The notes under the pieces: generated by a model
Seen by the model: only the letters and a program-made list of their open reading frames with translations
What the model was told of the DNA's origin: nothing
The model's database searches: none
Source: Octopus vulgaris
Lineage: Eukaryota
NCBI GenBank assembly: GCA_951406725.2
Contig: OX597819.1
Coordinates: forward strand, 94,550,001 to 94,614,000
Direction: 5' to 3'
DNA: 64,000 nucleotides
Position numbers and translations under genes: made by a program
In this document: one piece after another, positions 9,200 through 62,112 of the stretch
Position numbering within the stretch: the first letter of the stretch is position 1
How the letters are laid out: every line of letters begins with the position of its first letter

Positions 9200-10190
9200 T
9201 CATCTAGAAAAGATGCTGAGCAGATACAGCAGTTCTGGGATGAAGGGTCAGTGCCACAGAACTTCAAGATGCCAACATCGTGCATCTGTACAAGAACACG
9301 GGGGGACAGAGCTTCATGCGACAACCACAGAAGCATCTCATTGCTAAGCATTGCAGGAAAGATCATGGCCCGTGTTTTTATGAACCGCATCACACACCAC
9401 CTGCTGGATGACATGGTCTCAGAGAGCTAGTGTGGATTTAGGAACAACAGGGGGACAATTGATATGGTCTTTGCAGCACGGCAGATACAAGAGAAGTGCC
9501 AAAAACAAAACCAGAACCTCTACATCTGGAAAGGAAAGATATGGAAACTCAAAGATCTACCACAGTCAGAAATTTAGAAACATTCTAGTCAAAGTTTTTT
9601 TAGCAAAAAGAAGGTGATACAGGCATAGAATATGGCAGACAACTGGAAGTTCCTACAGGACAACCTACAAAATCTGTAGCTGGAACAAAGACCACACTAG
9701 ACTGAAGGAGATGTAGTGCAACAGTGAGATAGAATAGAACTATAAAAATGAAAAAACAGGATTGGAAGAATGGGAGCAATAAGGAAATATGCCAGATAAG
9801 AGAAACCAAGCAACAAGTTTACATAGCAAAAAAAGGGGTAGAAAGAAAATTTGGCTATGTTCTACAGTGTGAGTATCAGAGGCTCAAGGTGCTCAGATTG
9901 CAAGATAGTGTAGCTCAGAAAATCAAGATGTCATAGATGAGAAGTGTATTCAGATAGATAATGGTATGTTTGCATTTAGTGATCCTGAAAAGAAAAAGCA
10001 TGAAAGGCTTTCAAAAATGGAGATTGTCTATGAGAAAGAGGATCTTCCCAGTGTGGATCCAACAGAGATACCAGTTATCCAAGTTGATAGCAATATGATA
10101 AATCAAAAAAGATACGAAGATAAAGGAAAAACCTATTAGGAATTGCTGCTGAGATGCTTAAAATATCTGGTGGAGTAGGATACAGTTTGT
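9200..10190 (+). mobile_element. Decayed RTE-clade LINE fragments
   Basis: Translates WDEGSVPQNFK...GDRASCDNHRSISLLSIAGKIMARV...GFRNNRGTIDMVFAARQIQEKC, homologous to the RTE at 56770-57105. A second degenerate RTE-like stretch follows. Confidence 0.75.
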
Positions 10191-10419
10191 GAAACTACCC
10201 CAGACACATTATCAACAATATATCAGGTTGAGTAAAAAGGTAAGCAACGTTTTGAACCATGAAGAATTTGTACCAGATTTTTGCTAGTTTTGAATTTTTT
10301 TTGTAACATTTTTTTGCAATTGTCTGATTATACAGACTTGCCCAAATGCATCAATAAATTTAAATTGACATTTTTCACTTTTGTAACAATCATCTGTTTT
10401 TCTGGATATTGAATAACGT

Positions 10420-13318
10420 TTAGAGATCTGTAGGCGGGTTTAAATAATTGTTGCCTGTTGCAGGATTCATTGTTGTTTTATTGTTGTAGCCGTTGAGTTT
10501 TTAATTAATGGCTTGTAATATTGTTACCCTCCTCCACGGGGGAAGGATTTGTATAAACTGATTTTTTTTACCTCATTGTAGAGGGAACGGATAAATTTTG
10601 AGTGCCACTATGGCATCAACTGCGGAAGCAGTAGCCACGCCGGCACCTATTAATTACGCCACTGCCGTTGGTCAGCAAGAGGAAATCATTACCTTGAAAA
10701 AGGCTGAAATACAACTTTTGTTTGGCAAAATAACTGAAAGCAACAGGGAAAGTAATTCCCCGCCCCCTGAAATAACTACCTGCAGACGGGAAAGAACTGT
10801 AATATATAAAATGTTCTGCTTAAAAAGAAAGAAAGTGAGACGGTTTGAGGAGGAAGATAGAGGAGTGCCTCGGGTCAGTAATGAAGGATATTGCCTTCCT
10901 GACCCGAGGTAACAAGTACGCAACAGTCGAAGCAGGGTTCGAGTCAGCTGGAAAGGCTGAGGATTATTCCGCTCGGACCTTGCAGAATGACAAAATGGCA
11001 CTATTACCATTATATCTGGGACGCAGGACATCCCAGATAAAAATCATGAATATCCCTCCTGGTGTTGAGGTAGCATGGGTTGTTGTCATACTCCTCTTCA
11101 ATAGAGAAGAAAAACTGGAGGTAATCCAGATAAAAAGATGTCTCCCAGAATTGGAAAGGACAATCTTTGGAAATCCTGGTACAGGCTACACCTGCAGACT
11201 TAGAAGAGCTCCCCGATAGAATACAGATTGCAGAGAAGTCAGCCTTAATCATAAATGTGGAAGGGAGAAAACCTTGGTGCTTCCGGTGCAGAAGGAAGGG
11301 ACACCAGAGGGCCGTGTGTGGGCCTCCCAAGGTGAAAGGTGGGGAGAACTTCCTTCTCCCCACCAACGAGAAAGTGGCAAAAGTGGTAGCCCCAGCCAAG
11401 GAGGCCATTACCTAGGGGGCTACCACCAACAGTAAGACCAACAACGAGAAGGTGATAGCCCCGGCCAAGGAGGCCATTACCCAGAGGGCTACCACCAGTA
11501 AAAAAGTAACCAGTGAGGAGCAGGTGGTAGCCCAGGCCAAGGAGGCCATTAACCAAGGGGCTACCACCAGCAGTGACGGGGTGACGGCCCAGGAAGAGGA
11601 TGGCAAAATGGAGTTCCAGGTGGTCTCAAGAAAAAGACCAAAAGCAGTAATATCGGAAAAGAATAAACCCCCTCCCAAAAAGGGAAAAGAAAATCATAAA
11701 GGTAGCCAGAAGGACCACAGCTGAAAAACTGATAGAAAGTAAAGGAACAACTGAAGAGGTGGCCTGGTACAGGCCATCAAACCTGTGGGGAAAAAAAAAC
11801 GGAAACGGTAATGGTAGTGTTTAGAAACACCAACACTTATTTGGTGGGTGTGATTGTGCCCAATATGCAATAAGGAATCTTCCAGAGTGATGTTGAAGGA
11901 GTCCTCACTTACAGAAGAATCTCAAGGAAGTTATACAATGACATGAAAAAGATACACCCAAAAGACATTGCAGAGCTTGGGTCACTGCAAAAAATAATCA
12001 ACCCGCCGGATGAACCAAGCCTGGAGGAAAGTGGCAAAGTTAACTCAGTCACCCTCAGGCATATACCTTAGGAAAGGTAAGCCGTTTCTTTTCCTTTTGA
12101 GAAAAGGCTACACTTAGCATAGGCTGTTTGAATGTATATGGCCTAGATTCGAAGTGGAAGCAGGCCTGTTTCCTCAATGACCCCGGGGATAGGTCTCAAG
12201 GATTTGATGGTTTGCCTTACGAATTTTATAAAAGTATGCCAGACTTGTTCAGGGAAATACTGGCTGTGGTGGGCGACCTGATTGGGGAGGCGCAAACCTG
12301 TACCATCCCAGGAAGGACGATACACAATAACCTTCATCTTATACGCTACACCTTAGATCGGGTTAGTCAAGTTCCTGGTGCACTGGTGAATTTGGACCAG
12401 TCTAAGGCATTCGATAGAATGGACCATCGGTATCTGGAGGCTGTCCTCACAGCAGCTTACCTTTCGTGGCTGGATCAGTGCTATGTATAGCAACATCAAG
12501 TCTGTGGTCTGGGTGAATAGTTTCTTCTCGGAGCCATTTGCAATCAAGTGTTCGGTTCAACAGGGTTGTCCTGTCTCCACTTCTGTACATACTGGCTCTT
12601 GAGCCATTGCTGTGGAGGTTGGAGGCAACTGAGGGCCATCCTCGTGATCTGTGTTATGGAAGAGACGTGATGGCATGTGCAGACGATGTCACCATCATCA
12701 TGTCAGACGAAGGGCAGCTACCTTTGGTAGAAGACCATCGAAAGATACGAGATGGTGGCAGGTGCAAAAATTAACCAAGAAAAATCAGTTGGTTTGCAGC
12801 TCAGCACCTGGAGAGGCAAGCCAACTCCTCCCAACAGTACCGTGAGTCGCTGGACAGAGGGTCCTGTTAAATTGCTCGGGGTCTGTTTCAATCCAGACCT
12901 CCTGATAGAGAAAAACTGGAGTGAGGTCACAGGCAAGGTGACTGCCCTAACCCAGGCCTGGTTTGGAAGGACATTATCCTTGCTAGGGTGGGCAGGGGTT
13001 GTACAGGTGTTTATTGCATCTGTAATAACCTACTGCCTGACCGTCGTGCTTTGCCCCAATTTGTGGATGAACAAGTTTGGACAGCTTCTATTCCGCTTTT
13101 TGTGGAGTGGGAGACCACCACTTGTGAGGCACTCTATCTGCTGCCAAAACCCGTTAGAGGGTGGGTTAGGGATGCATTGAGGGTGAGACATCTTTGGCTT
13201 TACCTGGATGATGAATGGGTGTGGTCAAGTTCTTTCTACAATTGGAGTCCCTGCGGGACTTGGGTCCATGGATCATGCAAAGACCTAGAATGGGTGATTC
13301 GTACAAAGAGTGCAGACA
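10420..13318 (+). mobile_element. L1/Tx1-clade LINE copy A: ORF1 plus internally deleted ORF2 (pseudogenised)
   Basis: ORF1 has RGNKYATVE and the CCHC knuckle CFRCRRKGHQRAVC. ORF2 pieces are DGLPYEFY, LDQSKAFDR, ACADD and GGLGM. Boundaries approximate. Confidence 0.85.
11363..11572 (+). repeat. Three tandem ~65-bp repeats inside ORF1 of copy A
   Basis: The unit ...gtggtagcccc(a/g)gccaaggaggccattacc..ggggctaccacca occurs three times (VVAPAKEAIT). Confidence 0.85.
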
Positions 13319-13319
13319 G

Positions 13320-16300
13320 GCCCTACCCCACCCAACTACGGTTGCCCACAAAAAGGTAAAAAAGAGAAGACCCCCCCCCCAGTCCAACCTGAACCACTTC
13401 CACCCCCCAGTGCCGAGCAATACCCTCCCCTCCCAAACTTATCCCAGTGTTCTCCCCCAACATACTCCCCGCTGTCCTCCCCATCACCCCCACAAAGCCC
13501 AAAAAAAATTACCAAGTTTCAGACAGTTTTTGTCTCGATAAACAAGGAAAACGATAGACTGAAGAGCGAAATGGAAAACATGCCAACTGCCGAAAAAGTG
13601 CAGACCTTTAAAATACTGCCCAAAAACGTGGAAATCTATAAGATGGATAGATTGAACTATAACATCATAAGTGCGCAGTACTCGGGGGATGTCAGGGGTC
13701 CGCAACTCGACCTGTACGAGTCACTTTTTAAGGCGGACTTCCCCCCCACGACCAACAGGGATATAAGAACACTTGTTAAAAAGTAAGCAATGTCCCGTAT
13801 TTGTGTAGGGTGCATAAATGTGCATGGCCTGATGTAGAACTGGAAGCAAGGGCGCCTCCTAAATGACATCAGGTCACGAGATTTAGATGTTATTGTTGCC
13901 ACAGAAACCCGGTTAAAGGGGCCAAGAGATCTGCTCCCGCTGTTCGACGGTTACAAGGGAATTATCTCTCCGAACCTGTCGTCCGGCAGAAGAGGGGTGT
14001 TGGTCCTGTGTAAAAAGAACCGGGTTTCTGAGAAAAAGTTCAGATCCAGAAGGTAGGCTGGTCATCGTTGATTTGACGTTCAGTAGTCGTAAGACAATCA
14101 GGCTGGTTGCAATTTACGCACCCAACGAAAACAAAGGGCAAAGTAATTATTTTCGGAACCTCGGCAAGTTTCTGAGTACATCGCACCCTTTAGTAATGTT
14201 AGGAGACTTCAACACAGTATGCGATGCGCGGGTAGACTGTGGAGGCTCGCGTACAGATAGGAAAGGAAATGCGTGCTTCCTGGATCTACTAAGACGCTTT
14301 GAGCTGGTAGATCCATATAGACTGGAACATCCAAACGCTCCATTGTGACATGGTCAAGTGGCGGCGGATCTCTCAAGTCATACATAGACAGGATACTAAT
14401 TAGAAAGGTAGATAGAAACCTAGCTAAGAGTCCACGAATTAATAACGATCCTGGCAAGGGAGGGGCAGTGGTCCATTTAGACCAATCAAAAGCTTGCGAT
14501 AGGGTCGACCATCATTACCTGGTGTCCGTTCTGGCTCAGTTTGGCCTGGGTCTTGGCTTCCTCAGGTGGATCATCAAAATGTACGACAACGTCGACTTGG
14601 TAGTTCGGGTGAACGGCTTTCTTTCTAAGCCGTTCAAAGTGAAATGCTCGGTCCGTCAGGGATGCCCACTCTCCCCACTTTTATATGTAGTGGCTCTTGA
14701 GCTGCTGCTGCGAAAACTGAGTGGCATCCCGAGGCAGCCAGGTCGTGAGATGTCGGTTTCGGCGTACGCGGATGACATCACTATCATCGTACTGAAGTGG
14801 ACCTCCTACGTAAAGTAGGCAAGGCCATAGAGGTTTACGAGACGGTGACAGGAGCAAAAGTTAATCGCGAAAAATCAGTTGGCTTGCAACTCGGCACCTG
14901 GAGAGGCAAGTCGATGCCTCCAGACAGCGTCGTGGGATGTTGGACGGAGGGTCCGGTTAAGTTGCTCGGGGTTTGGTTTGGACCAGACCTCCAAATAGAG
15001 AAGAACTGGAGCGAGGTATCGAGCAGGGTGGCCGCAATAGTCAAGACCTGGTCTTGTCGGTGGTTATCCCTGAAAGGTAGGGCAGAGGTAGCCAATGTGT
15101 TTATCGCATCGGTGATCACCTACCGCCTTGCCATCATGCCTTGCCCGGATTCGTGGTTGACCAGGTTGGAGAGACAGCTCTTTCTCTTCTTGTGGAAGAG
15201 CTCGAAACCACTTGTGAGACGCTCTATTTGTTGTCAAAAACCGTTAAAGAATGGACTAGGGATGCCGTGGCTAATTATGTGCAGAAATACACTGAGGCTA
15301 AGGCATCTGTGGCTCCATCTGGATGGTGAACGGGTGTGGTCTCCGCTGGCGAAACAGATGTTCCCCAAGTTCACCAGTTTCGGTGGACGGGAAGACTGGT
15401 TTAATCGCAGATCGAAGTTGGTATACGGAGTGTCGCAAGGCACTCCGCCTATTCCGTTGCTCGGGTAATGCCTGCGGCAGTGGTTCTACCGCTGTTTTCT
15501 ATAGAGGGTTTGTAGAGGCCGGTTGCGATGATACACTAGGGGAAACTCTAGGTTTCGACGATAATCAGCTGGCCAGTCTGTTCCAACGTACGAGGGACGT
15601 TCAATAAGTAATGCCCCTGACCCACTTGCAGTTGTTTGATCCAGCTGAAATTTTGCATGGGCAATTATTTATATTTCTATAGATTAAGTGGCAAATTACA
15701 GCTCTGAACTAATTGTGGTTTCTGATTTACAGGTGTTTGAACTGAGTCAAGTGTGAAATGGAGCCTGTTGAGTGTCGAGCAGTGATCCGGTTTTTGTATT
15801 TGAAAGGACGCACACCACGGGAGACTTTTGATGAAATGAAAGTAACTTGTGGTGATGATGCCCCATCATATGACCTCGTAAAACGCTGGCATCATGAATT
15901 CAAATATGGTCGGAACTCTGTGGAAACAGCTCCCAGATCTGGTCGCCCCCCCTTCTGCCATTGCATTGATGAGGCATCTGTCCGTCAAGTTGAGGCTGCC
16001 ATTTTGGAAGATCGATGCATAGCTATTCGCCAAATAGCCCATGAGGTCAAGATTAGTACCGGGTTTGTGGAAACTATCATTCATGACCATTTGCATATGC
16101 AAAAGGTGTCTGCCAGATGGATTCCCAGGTTGCTCACACCTTTCCAGAAGCAAGAACGCGTCGAGTGCTCGAGGATAAATTTGGAGATGTGCCAAGAAGA
16201 TGAGTCAAAATTTTTCAAAAGACTTTCACCTCTTCCCAGCCGTGAAGTTGTTTTTGAAAGGAAAGCGTTTCCCAGATGATGCAGCCTTGATTTCTGAAGT

Positions 16301-16630
16301 CACGTCGTGGTTGGAGGACCAAGCTGGGGTCTTCTATAAAAACGGTCTCCAGAGCTGCATCAAACGATGGTAGAAATGCGTAACTCTGGGTGGTTCCTAT
16401 GTAGAGAAAGACTAATAACTGTGCCAAGTTTCGTTGCTCTACTGCTATGGGAAGTGGGTCAGGGGCATTACTTATTGAACGCCCCTCGTACATTTGGGCA
16501 GAGGACCCTGGATAATTTTCAGAAGTCCTTGGCTTGGCAGTGTTACCGAGGTGCCTTACCTGTTCGGGACAAACTCGCAAGGCATGGAGGCCAAGTCAGC
16601 CCGAGGTGTGGGCGAGACAGGGAAACCGAG
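13320..16630 (+). mobile_element. L1/Tx1-clade LINE copy B: Pro-rich ORF1 end, APE, deleted middle, RT, zinc finger
   Basis: Motifs GCINVHGL, VAIYAPN, LGDFN, YIDRIL, SVRQGCPLSPLLY, AYADD and CPRC-like. The mariner at 15591 interrupts it. Confidence 0.9.
15591..16488 (+). mobile_element. Internally deleted mariner (898 bp)
   Basis: ~37-bp TIRs CGAGGG(A/G)CGTTCAATAAGTAATGCCCCTGACCCACTT with a TA TSD. ORF 15758 has the HTH region and WIPRLL but lacks the catalytic core. The empty site ttccaacgtacatt is seen in the sister LINE at ~41850. Confidence 0.95.
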
Positions 16631-16639
16631 ACCAGTAGT

Positions 16640-17445
16640 GAACCTGGTACAAGTGAAGATATCAGAAGCAGAGAAGGCAGCACAGTTTTAATTAGCATGC
16701 TGACAGGATAAGAGTTTATGCAAAGAAGAAAGGCTAGCAATTTTGAAGCAGCAGCTGGTGTCACAAAAAAGACAAATTGCAGAAGCGATGAGCTTAGAAA
16801 ATACAAAGATATGATGAAAAAGGATGGGGAGTGAAACAGTGATTACCCCTCCCAGTGAAATGATGCAGAATGCACTGCGGTGCACCATGATATATAAATC
16901 ATTTGTGACCAAAGCAAAAAAAAAAACTGGATAACGCAAGAGGCAGTGGAACTGTGCCTCTGTTCAGTTTGGAATGACGTGACATACATCGCAAGAGGAG
17001 TGAAGTATGCTACAATAGAAGTCCAATTCAAAACCGAGGAAAAGGCAAAAGAAGCGTAGATAGCATCATTAAAAACACAGGAGGTGGTACTCCTACCTAT
17101 TTATCTTGGCAGATGGAATTCCAAGATTAAGGTAGGAGACATCCAAACCCAAAGTAGATCTTGCTTGGCTGGTGGAAGCCATAATAAATGGCTTGGAGGA
17201 TAAGACCACAATTCTCCAAGCCTCAGTGCTTGGACTGAAGAATTAGCAGGGGCAGGGCCTCAAAATAATTACACAGGCTGCCCTGGCTGATTTAGAAAAT
17301 ATGATAGAAAGTATACAGGTGGGGGAGACTAAGCTGCAAGTCACGGTTGAGGAGAGGATGCCTCATTGCTACAAGTGTGATCAAAAAGGCCACATTAGAG
17401 CAGAGTGCAAACCTGAAAAAGCAGCAACTGGAGTGTCATTAGCAG
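16640..17445 (+). mobile_element. L1/Tx1-clade ORF1 fragment (copy C)
   Basis: Motifs YIARGVKYATIEVQF, LPIYLGR and VEERMPHCYKCDQKGHIRAEC. Confidence 0.8.
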
Positions 17446-19452
17446 AGCCTTGAAAATCGTGAGCATAGTCGATGCCCATCTGTCATCAATGATGGTCAAT
17501 TAAAGACCATCATTGAGAAAGATCCACGTTAAACCACTTGGGAACTGGCAAAAGAATTTCAAGTTAGACAGAAAACTGCCCTGCAACCATTTGCATGTGA
17601 TCAGAAAATCAAAAAGGCTCGACAGATTGGTACCACACAATTTGAATGAAAATCAGAAAATGCACAGATATGAGACTTGCTCATCGCTTCTTCTCTGTAA
17701 CCAGATTGATCCATTTCTCAACCATATTGTAACTTGCAATGAAAAGTGGATTCTGTACAATAATGAAAAAATGTTCTTCACAGTGGTTGGACGAAAATGA
17801 AACACTGAAAACCTTCCCTAAATTCAAGCTCTTCAAAAAGGTTATGGTGACTGTTTGGTGGTGTACTGCTGCACTCATCCATTATAACTTCTTAAAACCT
17901 CGAAAAAAACATTACTGCAGAAACATATTGCCATGAAATTGCCAAAATGAACGAAAAACTGCTACTCTGTCCTAGACTGGTCAACAGAAGAGGGCCAACC
18001 ATTCTTCAGGACAATGCTTGACCACATGTTTTGCTAATGACACTCCAGAAGTTGAGGGAACTTGGCTATGAAGTCCTTCCCCACCCAGATTATTCCCCAA
18101 ACTTTTCTTCTGACTACCACTTTTTCAAGTGCCTTGATACTCATGAGCAAAAGTCTTCATTGTAATGGTGCTTACTTTGATGAATAAAATTTCCAAATTG
18201 TTGAAATATATTGAGATGAATTTCATGTTTCAAAACGTTGCTTACTTTTAACTCAGCCTGATAGTTAAAAAACCACTTGATTTTTGATTTTCAAAACATG
18301 CTGCAACTTAAATATTCTTTTAGTCTGCAGCTGACTACAATGGTGCCTTGTCTATGGGAGACAGAATAAAAAAAAATGTTGACACAGAAGAAAACAATGC
18401 TTGAATTTTCCTCAGTCTCAACAATAAGAATTCAGTTCAACAAACTGATTTCTTACTCATGAAATTAATATGTAAGCAACTAACTATTCAACAGATACAT
18501 GAATCCTACATATGTAAATAGTCACATTATCATAGAACCACACAACTCAGAATGACAGGCCACTAGCAATGATACTGCCAAACATAGTAGCCTGCTGTAT
18601 CCAATCTATCTCAACTGGAATCAACAAAGTTAGACCGAGGAGATCTTCACATTCTAAAATGGCAAGTAATTCATATAAGAATGTAAAAGAAATGAACAAG
18701 TAATCAAATTCCAGATATCAAAATGACAACCTTTATGGCCAAAGATATTCAAACTAGTATTGCTAATATTCATACAACACCAACAGCAAGAAATCCTGTC
18801 TAACAAACACAGTGACCTTGCAGGCAAAGATATTTAAATTCAACATTCTAACCATAATGTTAGGTATCATAAAAGGCTTTTTGAAGAGATGTGGTATAGT
18901 TATCTTCAAACAGCAAAGATTATTATATAAACCCCATTAATCAGTAAGTACATTAGAATACATTTAATACAGAGGAGAGTGATAGGCATCTGTTGCTCAT
19001 TTTCTAGTCAAGGAGAATGTACAGGATTGTTCATAATTTTCTGTTGCATGCCATAAATTTGTATTTTTTAATTATCCAGTACACTGTCAAATTAATAATT
19101 TGCTAGCAAATTATGCATATCAAGAGCAGTATCAAATTAATTTGTTCTGCACTAATTTTAATTTTGCAAAACTAGAATGATCATTACTCTTCTACAGATG
19201 GATGGCATTACTAATCAGTTGTATCTATCAGTATTCAGATGAGATACTATGACCATTTGCCGTTTCACTAGTGACCTAGCAACATCTATTTGCTATAAAT
19301 GGAGATGCACAACAAAGTGTCTTAATTGGGTAAAGCTGGGAGAGAATTCAACAAGATCTGAATAAGCTGTACAAGGAAGAATTTGAGAATGTGAAAGTTC
19401 ATGAAGCTCAAAGGTCAGTGGAAAAAAAAATTCCAATATCTAACGTAAACAG

Positions 19453-20794
19453 TCTACCTATTTTCACGCCACTGATTGACATGTGACACGAGTGGTCTCT
19501 ACTACATTCGCACCGCTGGTTGTCACATGACGCAATTTGCCTCGGCTTATTTTCGCACAATTTGTTCCAAGCAGCCAATCACAGCTTTCCATTTCTGAAG
19601 TTCGTTTGAGCCACCCAAACAATATATAAAGGAGGGTTTTCAAACACCTTTGGTCTTTGGTTCTAGTCCTTCTCAGGGCTAACCTCTGACCACAGAGTTC
19701 GTCTTTGGGTTCTAGTCCTTCTCAGGACTAAACCTCTGACCACACAGAGCATACTCGACCATGTTCCAGTTCGAAAGGCAGGCGACCACCATTATATCAA
19801 GAGAAAAATAACCAAACAGAACATATAATGAAGACGCTGCAAAAACCAAGTGACAGACACGTCATTGCCAACATCGTCTTTATCTACAAAGATTTAATTT
19901 GTACACAAGACAACTACGGATTCAACTCTAGCGGTTAGGTGAAAATCTCACCATGGGAAAAACGGCTACAGTTAATATATCTGGAAGTATATTCATATCA
20001 AGAGAAAGATGAAACACAAGTGATTCAATTAATCTCAACTACGAGACGCAACGTCTTGATATGGAACTCTTACACTCCGTGTACCTCATAAACGGTAAAT
20101 CAATTATCTGTCTTGAGTTCCAGTTCTTCTAAGAACTAACTTAGGCCACCTGCTGCTCAACTTAGAGATATGCGATTGTCTCTGCTACTACCTGTTGCTA
20201 TGCTGATACCAACAACATGAACCGTGAACCGAACCGAATTCCATGGTTAATTCTATAGTCAGTACCTTTTATGCCTCACGAACACATAGACACAAAAACA
20301 TGCTAATGCTTACAAACTCTTAACATTGACACGATTGTAAAATATGTAAAATAAATAATGTATATATCTCAAAAAGAAATCTTGTTATTCCACTTGTGTT
20401 CTATTGCCGCTGTACGTATTATATGGTCTGTTTGGTTATTTTTCTCTTGATATAATGGTGGTCGCCTGCCTTTCGAACTGGAACATGGTCGAGTATGCTC
20501 TGTGTGGTCAGAGGTTTAGTCCTGAGAAGGACTAGAACCCAAAGACGAACTCTGTGGTCAGAGGTTAGCCCTGAGAAGGACTAGAACCAAAGACCAAAGG
20601 TGTTTGAAAACCCTCCTTTATATATTGTTTGGGTGGCTCAAACGAACTTCAGAAATGGAAAGCTGTGATTGGCTGCTTGGAACAAATGGCGCGAAAATTA
20701 GCGGAGGCAAATCACGTCACGTGACAACCAGCGGTGCGAACGTAGTAGAGACCACTCGTGTCACATGTCAATCAGTGGCGCGAAAATAGGTAGA
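19453..20794. repeat. Long inverted repeat: 377-bp arms (19453-19829 and 20418-20794) around a 588-bp spacer; LTR-like content
   Basis: The arms are direct reverse complements with roughly ten mismatches. Each arm has CCAAT, TATATAAA and two tandem ~55-bp units. Confidence 0.95.
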
Positions 20795-20893
20795 GACAAA
20801 TCGCGTCACGTGTCAACCAATCGGATTAGTGTTTACAACAATGTTAAACTAGCCAAAGATGTTTGTAATCTCGAACGAGATTATTCGTAATAC

Positions 20894-22260: not shown

Positions 22261-22262
22261 TA

Positions 22263-37643: not shown

Positions 37644-37662
37644 AAACATGTTATGTAACAAT

Positions 37663-42625: not shown

Positions 42626-42629
42626 ACAG

Positions 42630-43455: not shown

Positions 43456-43493
43456 AATTCCAGTTTGTTATATATTTTGAGTATTGTTATCAC

Positions 43494-43496
<3 letters not shown>

Positions 43497-43541
<45 letters not shown>
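43497..43541. repeat. (AT)n(AC)n microsatellite
   Basis: Seen directly. Confidence 0.95.
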
Positions 43542-49400: not shown

Positions 49401-50900
49401 ATCAGGCTGGTTGCGATTTACGCACCCAACCAAAAGGGGCAAAGTGATTATTTTCGGAACCTTGGAAAGTTTCTGAGTACATTGCACCCTTTAGTAATTT
49501 TAGGAGACTTCAACACAATATGCGATGCGCGGGTAGACTGTGAAGGCTCGCGTACAGATAGGAAAGGAAATGCTTGCTTCCAGGATCTACTAAGACGTTT
49601 TGAGCTGGTAGATCCATATAGACTGGAACATCAGAACGCTCCATTGTGGACATGGTCAAGCAGCAACGGATCTTCCAAGTCATACATAGACAGGATACTA
49701 ATTAGAAAGGTAGATAGAAACCTAGCTAAGAGTCCACAGAGAAAGCACCTACCCTCACAGCCCACTCTACATACCCATGACCAATCTAACAACCTTCCCA
49801 CTGTTTAAACACATGCCGTGTGCAGAAGTACTTTCCACTACTTTAAACAAATCACTGACAATGCCCCTTCCATTATACATAAACAATGCATCCTTGAACT
49901 TGCCCCTATAATCACCTAACTCATCTCTTACTCTCTAAGGGGATATGCCCAGGCATTTAGAAATAGACTTCAGTGTGTCCTACTCTAAAGAAAGGAAACA
50001 CCAACTCAGCTAACATCTGCAAGATAGTAGAGACAGCTATTAAAAATGTTTTCCATTACCTTGAATTTCTCTCTCTCTCTCCTTAGCTTTTGCAGAGTTT
50101 AGCTTTTGCAGAGCCTTATCCACTGGAGAAAATACTTTCTTACATCACACATCAGTGGATTCTGACAATGTTGCTCTTGAGATTAGCAAAGCTAGCAGCA
50201 TATTTGGTATTCAAATCTAAAGAAAAAAAACATTTTCAGTCTCCACCCATCTTTAACTTATTGGACAAGTAGCTTTCTATCAGATTACACCACTGGAACA
50301 TATATTGATGGAGCTCTTTCTCCCCTACTCTTAATTCTGGAACTCTTCAGGGTTCAGTTTTGTTCCCTAATCTCTTCCTTCTACATATTCACCAATTTAC
50401 CACCACATCCAGCGATGTCCACTCTTATGCAGATGATACAACCTTTTGTTCCTTCCTCAGTCACACACACACATGGATACCACATACCAAATTTTCACCG
50501 ATTCCATAAATAGAGACCTTGAGAGCATCCTCCAGTGAAGTCATGCAGCAAAATCTCAAGCACTACTCATATCAAGAAAACATTACTACACCACAGTCCC
50601 CTCTAAACACGAGCAGCACTCCAATAAGAGCTTGCACAGTCACTGCAAGCGTCAGGCCTCACTGTCATTAAAGATTTCTTTGGGGGAAAAAATACATAAT
50701 TAAGACCACAACCCCAAAACTAACCCTTCTCTTTAGGACCAGCAATATTTCTGTTCCCCAAGCCTCAAGTGAGACCCACAATGGAGTACTTCTCATATCT
50801 GGGATGAAGTAGCTGCTATACATACTGACATCCTGGACCAAATCCAGAGCCAGTACACTATAATGGCTTCTGCTACTTGTAGCTAGTTGGCCTTGTACTT
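46420..50900 (+). mobile_element. Old CR1/Jockey-like LINE (APE remnant ~46420-46970, RT remnant ~49740-50900), split by Tx1-like copies
   Basis: APE remnant NFNAHNSS. RT remnants LKKGN, SGTLQGSVLFPNLFLL and SYADDTT. Confidence 0.6.
47170..49739 (+). mobile_element. L1/Tx1-clade copies F/G: 5' UTR, chimeric ORF1, APE; 3'-truncated
   Basis: ORF1 has WGKKYATIEVYF and CYECGEKGHIRAEC plus a Pro-rich region. ORF2 has MSRIYAGCINVRGL, LGDFN and YIDRIL. 48620-49737 closely matches 13320-14435. Confidence 0.88.
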
Positions 50901-51629
50901 CCACTACTCAGATGTCTCTCTTGTTACCCATGTTGTATCCATCCACCAACCCCACATTAACCATTAAGCCCTTTCTTCAGAACATCAACCCTCTGGACTA
51001 TCTCCACCTGCTCAAGTGTCACCCATAGATGCTGACCTGCAACAGTTTAAACAGAAAATGGGATCTATATTACAATTTTGGAAGGCATATAAGAGTCATG
51101 GGTATTGCAACATCTTTCAGAGTGAGCAAGTAAAAACCATTACCCAGTTCAACATCAGCTGACATTTTGTTAGAAGCATTCAAGTGCCAGACCTCTGATT
51201 TGAGGCTACCTTCTTCCCTCCAGTCTCAGAGGCTCTGTAAAGAGCCTCCTCTCTCAATACAAAAAAAGACAGCAGGGCCAGATTGTGTCTATTGAGAGTT
51301 CAAGGAAATAATCAAAGATAGTGCTATACAAGCTGCCTTCAAATGTGCAGTATCCAGAAGGCTGGCAAGTTGTAACCCATGATAACAGTATCTACAAAGA
51401 TAACACCCCACAAAAAGACTGACAGTGGAAACTACTGTATTCTAACTTCAGTAAGTCATACCAGTAAGAGTTTTAAATGTGATGCCATCCAAACAAATTC
51501 AGCTATTATACTATATTGATCAGGGCCCAGGATACACATGAAGTTGTTTGATGACCAGAAATTTATGAATGGTGGCTGTAGATATATGTCTTACTCTGAG
51601 CCTATAGCAACATTAGGCTACATATGCTG

Positions 51630-51848
51630 ATGTTGATTTCAAATTTTGGCATAGGCTTGTAATTTCAAGGGAGAGAGTAAGTGAATGTAATCAACCTCAA
51701 TGCTCAACTGGTACTTATTTTATTGACCTTGAAAGGATGAAAGGTAAAGTCAACCTTGGCAGAATTTGAACTTGGAATGAGAAGACAGACAAAATACAGC
51801 TAAGCATTTTACTTGGCACAATAACAATTCTGCCAGCTCACCACCTTG
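51630..51848 (-). mobile_element. tRNA-derived SINE of a second family; degenerate relatives at ~445-630 (-) and ~5410-5575 (+)
   Basis: Minus strand reads AAGGTGGTGAGCTGGCAGAA...GTTCAAATTCTGCC.AGGTTGACTTTACCTTTCATCC...AAATAAGTACCAGT. Confidence 0.75.
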
Positions 51849-52424
51849 ATGATAACACTGACTACAGTAATGAACACAGGAAAAACAATAGATATAATTC
51901 AAGTTTCAATAAACAAGAATTTATAGACACTTTCTGCTGACATGGTTAAAAGTAACCTTGCAATGTTAAACCAACAAGGGAGCTTCTATGCAATTGTTTA
52001 ACCAACAAGAAATAGCAGCAAACTCTCCCTGCCTTTAAGAGACTTATTTTTAGAATTATATATCACAGCATGAGTGTGTAAGTAGAGAGAATTATTAAGA
52101 GCAATTTGAATGCCAAGTTAATAAAAAACTAAAAGCACTAGAATGATGAAAGCACGAGAACCTGTACAGCTGATGCTAGCTCATGTATGTTAACATGCAT
52201 GCATATACACAAGCATGTATGGCTGCATGGTTAAGAAGTTCGTTTTGCAAACACATGGTTTCTGGTTCAAACCCATCATGTTACTTTGGGCAAATTACTA
52301 TACCCTCTATCAAATTTCAATTCCAATGCCTTGTAATTTGGTAGGCAGAAACCCCTCACATGTGTGCACACATGCAATTCTTGTTGACATCACTTCAGCA
52401 GTAGTATGTCTCTCATAAGCAAAA

Positions 52425-52810
52425 TGTCTGGCAGTGCTGTGTGAAGAAGGGTGTGATCAGTCCTTTGAATGGAAGTCAGCCAAATACAAGAGCCTTCTGC
52501 AGGATTGCAGGAAGAAGTATAGTTATTGCTTTTCTCAGTCAAGATTAGTTGTAGGGGATTCCCTGCTGGTCAGTATGAAGGATGCTTACAACCACTGGAA
52601 TGAGAGGAAAGGAGTGAAAAGTGGTTGTGCACAGGATGGAAGAGGCAGCAGAAGGAATCTCTTGCTAGTTATAGAGCAAAAGAGAGGAATTAACCTGGAA
52701 GCCAGGAGATGATGAGCAGTGATTTCGCCACTTTTGCTGACCCACCAACAGGAGGATATCACAGTTCAGAGACAAAACACCCAATGATTGTTGGATACCA
52801 TCTGATGACA
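52425..52810 (+). mobile_element. HERO/NeSL-like RLE-LINE 3' remnant
   Basis: V.CEEGCDQSFEWKSAKYKSLLQDCR resembles the RLE C-terminal VPWEE..A.ERK..KY motif. Confidence 0.55.
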
Positions 52811-53332
52811 TTCACTTTGGTGAATGGAAAAGAAATGCCTTCTAGGTATTATCAATAACATAATACAGGTGCAGAAATGGCTGAGTGATTAAGAAATCTG
52901 CATCCCAATTACATGGTTTGGGGTTTAGTCCCACTGGATAGCAACCTGAGCATGTGTCTTCAGCCAAAGCATTGTGAGTAGATCTGGTAAGCAATCGTGT
53001 GTGTGTGTGTGTGTGTGTATATATAAGGACTGAGATGTCAGACATGAAGTTCTCAGAAAGATATGCCCACCCCAGTAAAACTGAGTTTTGGACGCACTGT
53101 GTATATTGTACTCTCCATTGATTCACTCTACTGCCACTGAACTACTCTCATCATGTACTACATCTACCTCTTCCCCCAATGCTCCTGCAGTATACCCCAC
53201 CTTATCTCTTATTCTCCCACTCAACTACACCATTACTGTCATTTCTCCCCACCCCACCCTACATTTATCTGCCTCGACTCATCAATCTTCAGCCTGTCCA
53301 CCTGTTTTTTTTATAATAATTGTAAGCTACCT

Positions 53333-56300
53333 ATATAAAGTTGTCACTGTCGCTGCTAGAGTAATACAACCCGAGCTGATATTTTTTGAGCGGAAGAGTG
53401 AAAGAAAGTGAAAAATTGTAGAAAGAGACGTAACGGGATTGAATCGTGCGAGGCGCTTGTTGCTGCGTGTCGTTACTTTATAGAAGGAGCATCGACCCTC
53501 AGTCGACCGTTATTGTTGTTACCTTTATTGAAAGGAACTGTACGTGAGGGTAGGCCAAATTATGGCAAGCCCGACGGCAGACCTAAGTGAGGCGAAAACG
53601 GCAAGCTGAGTAAACCAAAGCCCACGAAGAACGGCTAGCCAAATGGTTAGCCCAGAAAAAGAAGAAGAGCCGGAAATAATCGGCATACCGCTTTTTTCGG
53701 ACTCTGACGAAGAGAAGGAAAATGTGACAAAAAAAAAAGCTGCACGTTCGAAGGAACATTGACGTGCCGAGTCTGGCAAAAAAACAACTTAATTTTGCAG
53801 AGGCAGCAGGCACAAAGGAGAAGATTGAGCTCTCAAACCTGGACGAGCTAAAAAAAGACATGAAAAAGGAGGGGTATGAAACAAAAATCGAACAGACAAA
53901 GGAAATACAAGAGGACATTGAAAAGAAGACTATCATTTACAAAACGTATAAAAACAAGGAAAGGAGAATTGAGTTCTCAGCAGAAAAAGAAGTAGAAGAC
54001 TGTCTCAAGCCCATCTGGGACAAGGTGAAGTATATCGCAAGAGGAAAGAGATACGGAACTGTAGAGGTGAGGTTCATGTCCGAGGAGGAAGCGAGACTTC
54101 ACTCTATGAATCCGCTCAGAACAGAAACGGTGACACTTTGGCCCGTCTATATGGGCAGGATATCGAAAATAACAGTAGCAAACATCCCTCCGGAGATCGA
54201 ACCGGAGAAGATAGTGGCAGCAGTCACTTTGGGATTAGAAGAAAGGCTGGAAATAAGAGATGCCACAGTCGAAGAAACGGAGAAATGGAAAGGTAAAAAA
54301 GTAAAAATTATTTTGCAGGCGGAACCAGCCACACTTGAAGAAATAAGCGAAATAATTGAAGTTGATGACAACAGACTACCAGTGATGGTTGAGGGCCGAC
54401 AGCCCAGGAGCTTCGCCTGTGGAAAAAAAGGGGCACCTGAAGAAAAACTGTAAACCGGTGGAAGAAGGGAAAAAGACGCAAGAGTCTACTACCCCGGTAG
54501 TACACCCGATAATAGCACCCATACCCGAAGAAGGGGAGGGGTGGATGCAAACAAAAAAAAGAAAACATAAAAATCCCTCCCCGGAGAAAACAAAAAGTGG
54601 AAAAACGAGAGAGATAAAAAAAAGCGAAGAAGCCAGAGAAAGACAACCAAGTGTATGCAGCGATAAAATCTTCCAACAGAGAAATCATGAGGAGGATAGA
54701 AACGCACCACATAGAAGAAGTGGAGACAGAGGAGGCAGGCGAATGGAGAAGCTACAGAATGGGGCAGAAAATGTTCAATCTATTGGTGAATGACTTCAGA
54801 AATGATGTCTGCCCCTCGAGAATGAGTGCAGAGGATGCTAAAAAGGATGCAGACAGTAATAACACCAACTTGCCGATTCCACAGGCCCAAGAAGCAGAAG
54901 GGATGGGTTCCCTCCGTCCTCCAGACCCAGATGAAACAAGGTTGGTGAATTATGGCAGTTCATGTAGGTTGTTTGAATGTGCACGGCCTGATATCAAACT
55001 GGAAACAGGGGCGTTTCCTAAATGATATCAGGTCGCAGAATTTAGATGTTGTCGCTACTGAGACTCGAGTGGAAGGTCCAAGAGATCTACTCCTGCTCCT
55101 GGATGGCTATGAGAAATTTATTTCTCCTGGCCGGCGGGGGGGGCGGGTCCTGCTTAAAAGAAATCGAGTTTCTGGGAAAAAGTTAATTTTTTCTGACTCA
55201 GAAAGTAGGCTGGTCGTCTTAGATCTGACGTTCAGTTGTGGCAAGGAAATCAGGCTGGTGGCGGTGTACGCACCCAATTCGCATCAGACTGATTTTTTTT
55301 CGAGACCTGGAGAAGTTTCTTGGCACGTCAAAATCCATAGTCATGCTAGGGGACTTTAACGCTATAGTCGATGCGCGTGTTGATAGCAGTGGCTCTAAAG
55401 ATAGGAAACCAAACAGTGGCTTCCGGGATCTACTTAGTCGCTTTCAGCTGGTAGATCCCTACAGACTTGAATTCCCGAACGCTCCACAGAGGACGTGGTC
55501 AAATAGCGACGGGTCTGTCAGGTCCCATATAGATAGAATTCTTATTGGAAAAATAGATAAAGACATAGTTAAGTGTCCACAGCTTCACCCGGTCAGTTAC
55601 AGTGATCACAAGATGGTCACTGGCAAACTGCACCTAGATAAGTTATGTAGAAAGGGATCCGGTTACTGGAAACTCAATAAGTCCCTTTTGGCTATTGAGG
55701 ATTTCAGAAGCCGGATTAAGTTATTAAATCAGAGGGCGTTAACCGGTTCCATTATTAACAACAAATGGTGGTACGCCCTCAAGAGAGCCATTAAATACGA
55801 GTCCATTAGATACAGCATAGGACTAGTAGCTAGTGGGCGTAGAAAAGAAATGGGGTTAGTTAAGGCCTTAGAGGAAGCCATGAGATCTGGCGATGGAGCC
55901 CAGGTTAGGCTGAAAAGACTGGAATTAAACCAGCACCTCGAAGCCAAACACATGGGTTGTATTGTCAGAGCTAGAATCCACGCAATGGGTGCGAGGGTAT
56001 TAGGGCTGCCGGATGGGCACAAATTGTGGAACCTCAACATGGAAACGATTCCACAATCAAGTCTGTGACGAACGAACAAGGCGATGTGGTAACTGAACCA
56101 GAGGAGATGTGTCGGACGTTTCAGGAGCACTTCGCCCAGCTTTTCGGGAGCGACGGCGGGCCGGGTGAGAGGACGGACCTTACAGACCTCCTCGCCGGGC
56201 TGCTGCGCCTCTCGGGGCAGGACGCGGAGAGCTGTGAAGGGTCAATCTCGCCTGAGGAGGTAGCTGAAGCCATGGCCGACTGTGGCAGAGGTAAGGTGCC

Positions 56301-59300
56301 GGGAATTGATGGTTTGCCCTACGAACTATATAAAAGTATGCCAGACTTGTTCGGGTACGTACTGGCGGCAGAATGGGTTCATTCCCAGATCTGTGCGCCG
56401 GGGAGTGGTGACGCTGATCAGGAAGGACTCAAGCAAGGGGGTTACAATAGATAACTTCAGGCCCACCACCCTGCTGAATGCAGAGGTGAAGATTTTGGCC
56501 AAGGTGTTAGCGAAAAGCTTGACGTGTGTCGCGGATGGCCTAAACGGGGAGACACAAACTTGTGCAGTCCCCGGAAGGACCATTCAGGATAATCTTCACC
56601 TTATACACTACACCATAGAAGGGTTCGGGAACAATTCTGGCAAAGGTGGGGCACTGGTCCATTTAGACCAGAGTAAAGCTTTCGATAGGGTGAACCATCG
56701 GTACCTGGTGTCTGTGCTTGCACAGTTCGGTCTGGGCATTGGTTTTCTCAGGTGGATTATACAGTTGTATCGAAAGCCCTGGTGAGGTCAACAAAGGTCA
56801 AGGTGCTGCTCCATGTATTTCTCCTGGAGCTGGTGGGCAGCGAATATCATGTCAGTGGTCCCTCGACCCGTGCGGAAGCCACACTGGCTCTCAGGGAGAA
56901 GGCCTTGCTCCAAGTGTTCCAGAAGGCGGTCAAGCAGGACTCAGGCCAGGATCTTGCCTGCTATGGAAAAGAGGGAGATTCCTCGGTGGTTGTTGCAGGA
57001 CTGCCGATCTCCTTTCCGCTTATAAATGTGGACGATTGTTGCATCCCGGAAATCTTGAGGGAGTTGTTCCCTGTCCCACATCGACTGGAACAGGCTGGTG
57101 AGCTGTTCGATACAGTCAGTCGGGAGGGACTCTGGAAGGTCATGGGAAAATTTGGTTGCCCTAGCAAATTTATTGCAATTGTCCGCCAGTTCCACGACGG
57201 AATGATAGCCAGAGTCCTTGAAGACGGCAACTCATCTGAAGTCTTCCAGGTGACCAACGGAGTCAGGCAGTGCTGTGTCCTGGCCCCAACACTGTTCAGC
57301 ATCATGTTCTCGGCAATGCTGTCCAACACCTTCAGGGACTGCAAGTCCGGTATCGACATCAAGTACAGGACGGACGGGAAATTTTTCAACTCCAGAAGAT
57401 TGCAGGCCGTCACAAAGGTGAAGGAGACAGTCATCAGATACTTTCTCGTTGCTGACGACTGCGCCCTTAACGCAATCGATGAGCAGGAGATGCAGCACAG
57501 GATGGACAGGTTCTCATCAGCCTGTGACAACTTCGGTCTCACCATCAGTGTCGAGAAAACCGAAGTGATGTTTCAGCCAGCCCCCGGCAAACAATACCAT
57601 GAGCCTCAGATAAAGGTGAACGGATGGATCCTACGAGCGGTGGAAAACTTCACCTACCTGGGCAGCACTCTCTCCTGCAATGCCAACATAGATGCTGAAA
57701 TCATCAACAGAATCTCCAAGGCAAGCAGCGCGTTTGGGAGACTGTGAAAGAAAGTCTGGGAGCAGAGAGGAATCAGCCTCAACACCAAGCTGAAAGTCTA
57801 CCGGGCAGTCGTGCTTACCACCCTACTATACGGCTGCGAGACGTGGACTGCTTACCGAAGGCACGAGTGCCAGATAAACAACTATCCACCTAAGGTGTCT
57901 TCGGAACCTCCTTCACATCCGCTGGCAGGACAAAGTCCCAGACACGGAAGTTCTGAAGCAGGCAGATCTCCCTAGCACCATCACGATCATGCGCAAGGCC
58001 CAGCTGAGATGGGCAGGCCACGTCTCCCACATGTCCGACACTCGCATCCCAAAACAGCTCTTCTACGGTGAACTCAGCCAGGACAAACGCAAAGTTGGAG
58101 GGCAGAAGAAGCGCTTCAAGGACAGTTTCAAAGTCTCTCTCAATGACTTCTCCATCGGCACAGAGCCTTGGGAGACACTTGCTGCCGACCGCTCATCCTG
58201 GCGCAGCGCAATCACCACAGGAGCAAAGACAGCCGAGGAGAGACGGATTCAGTCAGCAGAACAGAAACACCAGATGCGGAAAGCCAGAGCCACCTGCACC
58301 AATAGCACAGCCCCTACCCACTTCTGCGCCACCTGTGGGAGGGGCTTTCTTGCCTGGATAGGCCTCACCAGCCACCTCCGGTCTCATAGCAGCAATTCCA
58401 CCAAATGATGTCAATGGTCATCTTCGAACCCGAAGGACGAACATTATTATTATACAGTTGTACGACAACATCGACTCGATCATTCGGGTGAATGGCTTCC
58501 TTTCAAAGCCGTTCCACATCAAACGGTCAGCTCGTCAAGGGTGTCCGCTCTCCCCGCTTTTATATGTGATAGCTCTCGAGCCATTACTGCAAAAGCTGAG
58601 CACCATCCCGACGAACCCAGGAGGTGGAGGATCTGTTACAGCGTATGCGGACGACATCACCATCATCGTGACCAAGGTGGAACTCCTACAGAATGTGGGA
58701 GATACCATCAAGGCTTACGAGACGGTGACAGGAGCAAAAGTTAATCGGGAAAAGTCAGTCGGCTTGCAACTCGGCACCTGGAGGGGCATATCGATGCCTT
58801 CGAATAGCATCGTGGGATGCTGGACGGAGGGCCCGGTTAAATTGCTAGGGATCTGGTTTGGTCCAGATCTCCAGATAGAAAAGAACTGGTCGGAGGTGAC
58901 GAGCAAGGTGGCCCACGCGGTCAAGACTTGGTCTTGGCGGTGGCTATCCTTGAAAGGAGGGCAGAGGTGGCCAATGTGTTTATAGCATCAGTCATCACTT
59001 ACTGCCTAACCGTCGTTCCTTGTCCGGATTCGTGGTTAAGCAAGTTGGAGAGGCAAATCTTTCACTTTTTGTGGAAGGGTAACCCTCCTCTTGTGAGACG
59101 TTCTATTTGCTGTCAGAAGCTATTAAAGGGTGGGCTAGGGATGCCTTGGCTGTTGATGCGCAGACATGCGCCGAGATTGAGGCATCTTTGGCTCTACCTG
59201 GATGGTGAACGGGTGTAGTCCCCGCTTGCGAGGCAGATGTTCCCCAGCTTTGCCAGTTTTGGTGGTAGAGAAACCTGGTATCGTCGCAGACTTATGTCGA

Positions 59301-60232
59301 GCATGTGGTATTCAGAGTGCCGCAAGGCCCTCTTCCACCTCCGCAAGTCGGGCAATGCCGGTGGCTTTGGTACCACCGCAGCCTTTTATAGTAGGTTGGT
59401 AGAGGCCGGAAATGACGATGCCCTGGGAAGGACCTTGGGTCTCGATAATAATCAGTTAGACAGCCTGTTCCAAAGGACATTCGGACCGAGGACGCTGGAT
59501 AACTTTCAGAAGTCTTTGGCCTGGCAATGTTACAGAGGAGCCTTACCCGTTCGGGATAAACTCACAAGGCATGGTTGGAGTGGACCATCGAACTGTCCAA
59601 GATGCGAGCGGGATGCGGAAACAGTCCCGCACGCTATTGTTCAGTGCCCGGAAATTTCGGACGTGTGGGTTTATGCAGAACACCTGTTGTCGGACGGAAG
59701 AAGAGTACAGCTATCGGCTGAGACAATTCTAAAAATTGACTCGCCTAGTTTCTTGACAAATGAAGGTAAGCATTGCTTTCTCGTCATAGTAGCAGTCGCG
59801 AAAGAGATTATATGGAAGACCAGAACGAAAGACACCATGATCTCTGGCCTCGCCTTGGTGAACTTCTTTAAGTTCCACCTAAAAAGAAAGGTTGAGTTAG
59901 AGAAAAGGTGTCTGTCAGTATGCAAGTTTCAAAAAAGATGGAAGTGTGTTGCACGATTGCTGGGAGTGAAAGTCACTGCATGAACATGCCATAAGTCAAC
60001 TACCAAGGTTTCAGTGGGGAAAAACAGCTCGTGGAGTCGGCAATCCTGTTTTTTTCTGCTTCATGCGTCCTTTTTGTGTTATTTCGTCAAATGTGTAACA
60101 TTCGATTTTCGATTTAATTGTAATTTCATTGTATTTTTACCATCATTTAATGTTTTACATCATTTTAACATGACCCCAATCATGTTGTACTGTCCCCCTC
60201 TATGTTGGCCCCTTGTGGGTAATAAAGAAATA
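53333..60232 (+). mobile_element. Full-length L1/Tx1-clade LINE (5' UTR, ORF1 ~53562-54950, ORF2 54952-59983, 3' UTR); frameshifted and carrying an RTE insertion
   Basis: 18-bp TSD aataattgtaag(c/a)tacct at 53315-53332 and 60233-60250. ORF1 has an RRM-like region and zinc knuckle. ORF2 has APE (GCLNV, GDFN, SDH), RT (PGIDGLP, LDQSKAFDRV, QGCPLSP, YADD) and CPRC..ET.PH...C. Confidence 0.95.
56770..58448 (+). mobile_element. 5'-truncated, 5'-inverted RTE (BovB/Expander-like) LINE
   Basis: 14-bp TSD attatacagttgta at 56756-56769 and 58449-58462. 56770-57105 is inverted. The sense part runs FDTVSR...ADDC...FTYLGS...QLRWAGHV...CATCGR and ends in an (ATT)n tail. Confidence 0.95.
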
Positions 60233-61142
60233 AATAATTGTAAGATACCTCCCATCCCTTCCTCTTCCCCATACAATCTCGCAAATCACCCCATCCACTT
60301 CTCACCTCATACCTTAAGGGGCTACTTGGACATCTCATTGGCACTATCTCTCTGCAGCACCTACTGATCATTCTTTCCCTCCCCTACTGATTTACAAATT
60401 GGAGCAACTGACTGCTTTTTTCTACCTCAAAACATCCAGTCTAAGAGAATATATCAGGCCAGCAGACTGAGTCAAGTAGGGTTATATCTTGCTAAAGACA
60501 CAACAAAACAAAACTCCACAGGCCATCCCTATGAAGATGCTCAACCTGCTATAAATAACACCTAAATTTCCACCCAATCATTTCAAAGAATAAAAAAAAA
60601 AAAAAAAAATCATTGGACAAGTCCATGATATACCAAAAAAAAAAAAAAAAAAACTTATGATGGATGGAATATCATTCATCATAAGACTGCTCAATCAAAA
60701 TATAACCTGAATCTATACAACAAAATGGTTTTTTTTTTTTTAATGGTTCCTTAACAGTTTGAAATAATGCAACTATTAGCCCAGCACATTAACCAAATAT
60801 TTGAATCTTTCTTAGTGATCATAATATTAAAGTTTTATTTAATTGTACTGGAACTACTGAAGATAAGTTCATTAGAAAACTAAAATTTCATGACACTAAA
60901 ACAAAAACAAAAACTGTTCTAGGAGGAGGTGAAACTAACATTGCATTGCTGTTATATTTCATCCTCTGTTCTTTCTCCTCCACTTTCACTTACATATATC
61001 TCTATAAATAAATGATTTTATATATACAGAACTGAAATTCAGGAGAAATTGTATTGGTGAATTCCTTTCTTTCTTGATAAAGAAAGAAAGTTTGCAATAT
61101 CATATACCAGACACTTATGTCTTAAAACATTGTCAAAGTGTG

Positions 61143-61987: not shown

Positions 61988-62112
<125 letters not shown>

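Follow-up and report, generated by a model that had tools for sequence, protein, structure and literature searches.

A transposon island behind PALB2 in Octopus vulgaris as a candidate gene-read-through piRNA cluster

Why do transposon fragments of many unrelated classes, packed into 51 kb between two octopus genes, nearly all face the same way? We address this question for a 64,000-nucleotide stretch of the Octopus vulgaris genome (G000:C6:94,550,001-94,614,000; genome size 2.80 Gb), hereafter the window, whose own coordinates are used unless another sequence is named. At the left end are the last exons of a plus-strand ABCC1/MRP1-like gene and at the right end the final two exons of PALB2, which is read from the minus strand, both genes matching named O. 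vulgaris proteins at 99-100%, and a transposon island (9,200-60,250) occupies the gap between these convergent genes. An earlier note on this DNA had proposed that the island is a flamenco-like cluster of PIWI-interacting RNAs (piRNAs) with a minus-strand precursor. The explanation that we favour, at roughly even chances, is that it is a single-strand piRNA cluster of the read-through ('downstream-of-gene') kind known from mammals and mosquitoes, into which PALB2 transcription likely continues beyond the gene's normal end. The observations behind this reading are the position and density of the island, its 93% one-strand content, the splice sites of the PALB2 isoform P0003, locus-specific contigs in RNA-like sequencing runs and a gene-body-like decay of CpG.

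The pile-up of unrelated transposon classes on the plus strand, as described in the earlier note, is real. Among stop-to-stop open reading frames (ORFs) of at least 60 amino acids, restricted to those within the pile-up (147 of 160 on the plus strand and 150 of 165 on the minus strand), Pfam transposon domains were found in 18 of the 147 plus-strand ORFs and in none of the 150 minus-strand ORFs. The domains matched are reverse transcriptase (RT), APE endonuclease, CCHC knuckle, Mos1 HTH, DDE, Tc3 HTH and zf-RVT; one further plus-strand ORF matched Serglycin. A tblastn map of the island assigns 25,839 bp to the plus strand and 1,869 bp to the minus strand, together about 27.7 kb of the 51 kb, with a query library that includes window-derived pieces; when these queries are left out, 18,616 bp remain on the plus strand and 0 on the minus strand. 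The three minus-strand exceptions named in the note are also present: a hAT nested in an R2-like element (30,830-32,480, edges approximate; tblastn match 31,130-32,439), which is the only minus-strand DNA transposon, an R2-like RT piece (25,214-25,480, duplicated at 28,373-28,501) and the 3' tail of an RTE-type element, read by eye (52,400-52,750). To these we add the inverted 5' end of a nested RTE, and the nesting and local duplication of copies are confirmed.

The density of the island sets it apart from its surroundings. In eleven random 50-kb windows, a small null sampled over 27 chromosomes with lower-bound lengths, the library without window-derived queries matches 0.2-10.0 kb, and in four flank windows 1.4-3.1 kb; the island is denser than all eleven. 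This library is home-made and under-counts old elements everywhere. Class labels (Tx1, RTE, CR1, Penelope, R2) follow Pfam domains and known motifs and not a repeat database. The ages of the elements span a mariner that is 94-97% like a copy elsewhere to a CR1-type long interspersed element (LINE) readable by motifs alone. Loci like short interspersed elements (SINEs) number three plus a Tx1 tail in the island, against 14-36 in the flanks and 6-30 in random windows. In the introns of ABCC1 transposons amount to 2.2 kb per 50 kb, with four sense and three antisense events, and PALB2 carries two sense segments and one antisense segment. The true introns nearby are poor in transposons and, on these small numbers, show no clear strand bias, whereas the island, with 27.1 kb per 50 kb, is about 12 times as dense as the ABCC1 introns.

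One link between the island and PALB2 is P0003, an annotated PALB2 isoform of 809 amino acids in which splicing leaves the last exon when four codons remain ahead of the stop. Its C-terminal end is identical, in 57 of 57 residues, to the hAT at 31,300-31,130 on the minus strand. The hAT segment (31,130-31,301, minus strand) is the last coding exon of this isoform, and it is joined by a canonical GT-AG intron of 29,854 bp (31,302-61,155, minus strand) with a pyrimidine-rich AG acceptor and a cryptic GT donor inside PALB2's last exon. Over the P0003 exon stretch, other genomic hAT copies are at most 91% identical in DNA (93% over part of it). A published O. vulgaris annotation used PASA with both short and long RNA reads to add alternative forms (PMC10700109), so the P0003 model is probably transcript-based. 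The isoform P0001 ends at 61,146, as in O. sinensis and O. bimaculoides, and the coding sequence and splicing of PALB2 are preserved, the minor isoform P0003 being the exception. The cryptic donor (61,151-61,157) is formed by the codons of PALB2's last residues, which three Octopus species share; a trap-prone donor site may thus be conserved.

The earlier note had suggested a minus-strand precursor reading through from PALB2, which the P0003 intron, extending 29.9 kb into the island, and the contigs described below both support. It had also named an intron of a minus-strand gene as an explanation that would undo its reading. A minor isoform does formally make an intron of the island's right 30 kb. 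The exon downstream of this intron, however, is a nested hAT copy, and three species share the conserved isoform that ends at 61,146. Since the intron ends in a transposon that is itself nested in the pile-up, it looks like a product of read-through and not like the cause of the island.

Contigs from sequencing runs, compared with positions 42,001-61,990, are consistent with transcription beyond PALB2. In runs X1, X9 and X10, PALB2 contigs of 2.1-2.9 kb match only from 60,665 or 60,730 to 61,344 and end beside the acceptor, while a contig of DNA run X8 continues past 61,344 into the PALB2 intron; we therefore infer that X1, X9 and X10 are RNA runs. The RNA-like contigs reach past the only minus-strand AATAAA between the PALB2 stop and the island (60,834-60,839). 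Farther in, an X1 contig (59,621-60,580, with 0 other letters) links a Tx1 3' end to unique DNA, the junction between Tx1 and a nested RTE is spanned by contigs of X1 and X10, that between Tx1 and CR1 by X10, and X9 has near-identical pieces at 50.4-51.7 and 54.0-55.0 kb. The junctions of the Tx1 3' end with unique DNA and of Tx1 with RTE each occur once among the scored matches in the genome. The contigs are unstranded, and one that crosses two units shows no single transcript. Run-level word matches (6-8% in five runs guessed to be RNA, next to none in 14 others) are no evidence either way. Three further signals were set aside: contig depth falling away from PALB2, which cannot rank parts and for which 3'-biased sense Tx1 RNA gives the same slope; RNA-editing asymmetry as a strand marker, for which RNA-like runs and DNA runs gave similar ratios of A>G to T>C; and transcription-linked A>G asymmetry in transposon copies, with too few Tx1 changes (9 against 16).

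The base composition of the island also resembles that of a transcribed gene. The observed-to-expected ratio (o/e) of CpG is 0.06-0.27 in old parts of both island halves and 0.23-0.28 in the bodies of PALB2 and ABCC1, compared with 0.80-0.91 in nine of the eleven random windows. The full-length Tx1 of the island carries CpG transitions at 40 of 374 sites, against 40 of 1,165 in four sister copies (p 3e-7). Methylation in octopus is a mark of transcribed gene bodies and of the ends downstream of them, and not of transposons (PMC9476566). The AT skew of the island spacers (+0.10) has the same sign as that of PALB2 (+0.057) and the opposite sign to that of ABCC1 (-0.031); part of one spacer is an old repeat. 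Four PIWI-domain loci are present in the genome.

What weighs against a read-through cluster lies partly in the polarity itself and partly in the transcription evidence. As the earlier note had allowed, the copies are not all independent: when LINE chains are collapsed by hand, about 15 events face plus and three face minus (binomial p 0.0075), and since the genome comprises about 56,000 windows of this size, a p of 0.008 does not reach genome-wide significance. Leaving out Tx1 and R2 gives 10 events to 3 (p 0.09), and DNA transposons number 5 to 1, so that these do share the bias, as the note had argued, yet speak weakly against an effect confined to LINEs. It had further asked whether the bias might be typical of the genome; relative to the random windows the density is exceptional and polarity alone less so, since two of the five with at least 4 kb of matches are also more than 90% one-stranded. 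The one-strand bias is thus real but modest in events, and it is the combination of density, bias and position that stands out.

A self-organised LINE chain would account for much of this polarity. Here each new Tx1-type element would land behind the A-rich tail of an earlier LINE and point the same way, other classes would face plus by chance, and read-through would be incidental. Tx1-type LINEs do chain head-to-tail by themselves, and much of the LINE polarity is self-made: in a 30-kb array at C10:76.65 Mb every 3' tail is followed directly by the next 5' end, a junction type that recurs at window position 42,625, and Tx1 copies are co-oriented at all four other loci, which were picked for two or more copies. 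At C5:22.37 Mb an 11.7-kb pile of Tx1, R2 and RTE (CpG o/e 0.80) is wholly one-stranded and repeats the island's succession of an R2-like element and a Tx1 5' end. The other Tx1 loci, by contrast, are nearly pure arrays with few mixed extra elements and a CpG o/e of 0.74-0.87, whereas in the island tail-to-head junctions occur at 42,625 and within 10.4-17.4 kb and about half of the mapped bases belong to other classes. Five Tc1/mariner elements, Penelope, CR1 and three RTEs also face plus, five separate seeds agree, and the direction of the island agrees with the independent splice evidence. We regard chaining as the whole explanation as improbable, though still a serious contender.

On the side of transcription, the contig evidence begins to the right of the island's left 33 kb, sense Tx1 transcripts could explain some of the unstranded contig pieces, no excess of CpG transitions is seen in a young mariner of the left half (2 of 53), and the spacer skew may be due to unrecognised remains of plus-strand LINEs. 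The flank at window coordinates 79-164 kb, whose host genes are partly known, has eight of ten transposon segments on the plus strand at low density, so the same direction prevails to the right of the island. The bias of this flank also favours a rival that we hold to be unlikely, but a little less so than chaining: leaky PALB2 termination would transcribe the gap with no special piRNAs, sense insertions would be purged as splice or poly(A) traps, as in ordinary introns, and transposons would accumulate because nesting within one another does no harm. All of the transcription evidence fits this scenario equally well, and P0003 is a real trap, which replaces the last four residues of a protein whose human counterpart is destabilised by loss of its last residues (Y1183X; PMC6876638). 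An antisense bias of intronic LINEs is moreover general in mammals (PMC3088655). Purging by itself leaves the roughly 12-fold density over ABCC1 introns unexplained, and the ABCC1 and PALB2 introns, in small numbers, show no clear antisense bias. Downstream of mouse read-through genes that make no piRNAs, sense and antisense content was equal (PMC11615739).

That the island is the intron or body of an independent minus-strand unit missing from the annotation, whether gene or long non-coding RNA, which starts at a promoter near 60.3 kb and has its last exon near 6-8.5 kb, appears very unlikely. The stretch at 5.9-9.2 kb has a minus-type skew and little repeat content, and two unexplained accession numbers separate the PALB2 and ABCC1 records of O. 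bimaculoides. The corresponding protein records run consecutively in O. vulgaris (CAI9724597, then 598 and 599), so by accession order no protein gene is annotated between them, and by record numbers the two genes are neighbours in three Octopus species. The candidate left exon has no homolog among the 12 candidates compared, the island contains no strong coding segment, and an annotated PALB2 isoform enters it from upstream. The evidence points to the PALB2 promoter rather than to a promoter of the island's own.

Among known systems, the closest match to the proposed read-through cluster is the piC-DoG class of mouse, human and hamster (PMC11615739). Like the island, piC-DoGs hold dense, LINE-rich antisense transposon fragments over tens of kb right behind a protein-coding gene. 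Their transcripts extend past the normal poly(A) site, for which P0003 and the bridging contigs are the candidate counterpart, and among them only productive clusters are enriched for antisense elements. In contrast, the island lies in a mollusc and is known from sequence alone, its cargo includes DNA transposons and Penelope, and one sense element is spliced onto the last exon of the host. Read-through core clusters of Aedes mosquitoes are likewise intergenic, one-directional and within a few kb of the end of the upstream gene, but carry endogenous viral elements (bioRxiv 10.1101/2022.08.22.504762). Drosophila flamenco and flam-like loci share the strong one-strand bias and the packed, nested fragments, with a bias and enrichment driven by Gypsy elements of the long terminal repeat (LTR) type (PMC10643416). 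None were found in the island: no LTR-type Pfam match occurs in the 297 ORFs of both strands, and the tblastn map has no Gypsy match, with only two Gypsy pieces in the library. Because this defining cargo is missing, the island is not a member of the flamenco class, and the label of the earlier note gives way to the read-through class of piC-DoGs and Aedes core clusters. Flamenco, moreover, has its own promoter (bioRxiv 10.1101/2022.08.22.504762), while the island sits in a gene-dense, microsatellite-poor domain.

Two other comparisons cover parts of the locus. Gene-trap exonisation within introns (PMC3088655) shows that splicing can be captured by sense copies, the role that the hAT plays for PALB2, but the associated antisense bias predicts a bias and not a 12-fold pile-up, and the neighbouring true introns are poor in transposons. 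The head-to-tail arrays, which we take to belong to the L1/Tx1 clade, explain the co-orientation of the Tx1 copies in the island and probably that of the R2-Tx1 pair, and leave the orientation of mariner, Tc1, Penelope, CR1 and RTE uncovered. Within molluscs, piRNA clusters, unidirectional ones included, are known from snail, oyster and slug, and R2 elements are enriched 149-fold in oyster piRNA clusters (PMC6128900, PMC12506671).

Read from left to right, the plus-strand elements begin with an RTE-type LINE fragment with RT (9,200-9,530; translation and a weak tblastn match) and a second, weakly assigned old RTE-like fragment (9,560-10,330). A chain of L1/Tx1-type fragments with ORF1 and deleted ORF2 pieces follows (10,380-17,450), counted as one seed, in which the young mariner with terminal inverted repeats is nested (15,577-16,502). 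Beyond an old mariner (17,460-18,270) lie a Penelope-like element (19,453-21,790; inverted terminal repeat 19,453-19,829 / 20,418-20,794) and a 5' fragment of a Tc1-type transposase, read by eye with no Pfam match (22,250-22,920). The R2-like element, a non-LTR element of a low-copy family that is interrupted by the hAT (26,228-34,560), has an R2-type layout of RT plus weak N-terminal zinc finger and Myb-like matches, and its 5' part is duplicated locally (26,228-28,327 / 28,670-30,813, 88%). Right behind its 3' end stands an internally deleted Tx1 (34,700-36,540), followed by an old mariner (36,600-37,620), a Tc1-type transposon (38,250-39,420) and the two head-to-tail Tx1 copies that meet near 42,625 (39,700-43,450). 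A very old CR1/Jockey-type LINE (44,450-51,050), with endonuclease and RT motifs read by eye, is split by the 5' half of a Tx1 (47,140-49,737). The full-length Tx1 (53,335-60,235) has a target-site duplication and holds the nested RTE (56,770-58,451), which has an 11-bp target-site duplication of its own. The first ~336 bp of this RTE (56,770-57,105) are inverted, the pattern expected from twin priming.

Several features of these families extend beyond the island. The Tx1 copies at 13,323-14,435 and 48,620-49,737 are 86% alike and are broken off at an identical base, a hint of either a local duplication long ago or a breakpoint used repeatedly. A SINE-like repeat that is very common and also forms head-to-tail dimers shares its 3' tail with the Tx1-type LINE (60,194-60,232, and at many loci), which suggests that the two may form a LINE-SINE pair. 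The array on C10 (76,650,001-76,680,000; L076-L078) comprises several Tx1 subfamilies and several long open ORF2, and C22:14.22 Mb and C27:32.96 Mb both carry near-identical 5.3-kb Tx1 arrays. With 46 matches, the low-copy R2-like family stands beside co-oriented Tx1 at C18:79.80-79.84 Mb, C5:22.366-22.378 Mb (L109-L110) and C3:107.45-107.47 Mb, a neighbourhood that reflects either mutual targeting or further polarised islands. At C10:35,080,001-35,130,000 (L086-L090), two Tx1, a nested RTE and Penelope lie on one strand with three SINE-like loci; this locus resembles a smaller version of the PALB2 island, apart from its CpG o/e of 0.87.

The boundaries of the island are set by its neighbours. 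On the right, the last coding exon of PALB2 (61,146-61,350, minus strand) and the penultimate one (62,704-62,833, minus strand) belong to a gene body that reaches to about window position 79,133. With the stop at 61,146 and the nearest element ending at 60,235, the island begins about 0.9 kb past the stop, directly downstream of PALB2 and on its strand side. The identity of PALB2 is based on the match to the named O. vulgaris protein and not on Pfam, which missed single PALB2 exons; a PF16756 profile search of the genome gave no match. On the left, ABCC1 starts about 92.6 kb to the left of the window and has its last coding exon at 3,379-3,498 (plus strand). The AT-rich, mostly single-copy spacer between this gene and the island (5,900-9,200), with A over T as on the minus strand and no coding exon found, may be where the read-through unit ends. 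At 7.9-8.4 kb a putative gene of two exons was rejected, as no homolog was found among 12 candidates, and a tRNA scan of the window found none. To the right of PALB2 lie a gene that we take to be syntaxin-like from its motif (L013:9020-9932, minus strand) and a rhodanese-domain sulfurtransferase (L017:4373-5098, plus strand). Microsatellites cover 0.1-0.8% of the 264-kb neighbourhood against 2.8-17.6% of random windows, and low microsatellite content goes with low CpG o/e, which suggests a genome divided into methylated, gene-dense domains and unmethylated ones.

Under the read-through reading, PALB2 transcripts would now and then fail to end at the normal poly(A) site and continue through the island in reverse, giving one minus-strand transcript that spans it. 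RNA of this kind would be antisense to the messages of LINEs, mariners and Tc1 elements, a natural piRNA precursor, and would likely be cut into candidate piRNAs. Antisense insertions would be kept, adding targets at no cost, and sense insertions would mostly be lost, as they can act as splice traps, like the hAT in the isoform where it replaces PALB2's final residues. LINE chaining would have amplified whichever direction was seeded. Somewhat more tentatively, at a little under even chances, we propose the island as a candidate piRNA master locus driven by the PALB2 promoter, which would extend gene-read-through clusters to molluscs and archive LINEs and DNA transposons of many ages, with a sense hAT caught in the act of trapping the last exon.

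Among the papers searched on octopus and cephalopod piRNAs and on read-through clusters, none describes a mapped cephalopod piRNA cluster, and within that literature the island is the first candidate. Should it yield no piRNAs, the locus would still document how LINE chaining and read-through can mimic the flamenco signature in scans of sequence alone. If confirmed, gene-read-through clusters, known from mammals and mosquitoes, would be present in a third major animal lineage as well. The hAT splice trap, finally, provides a concrete cost of sense insertions and thereby bears on why such clusters are one-directional.

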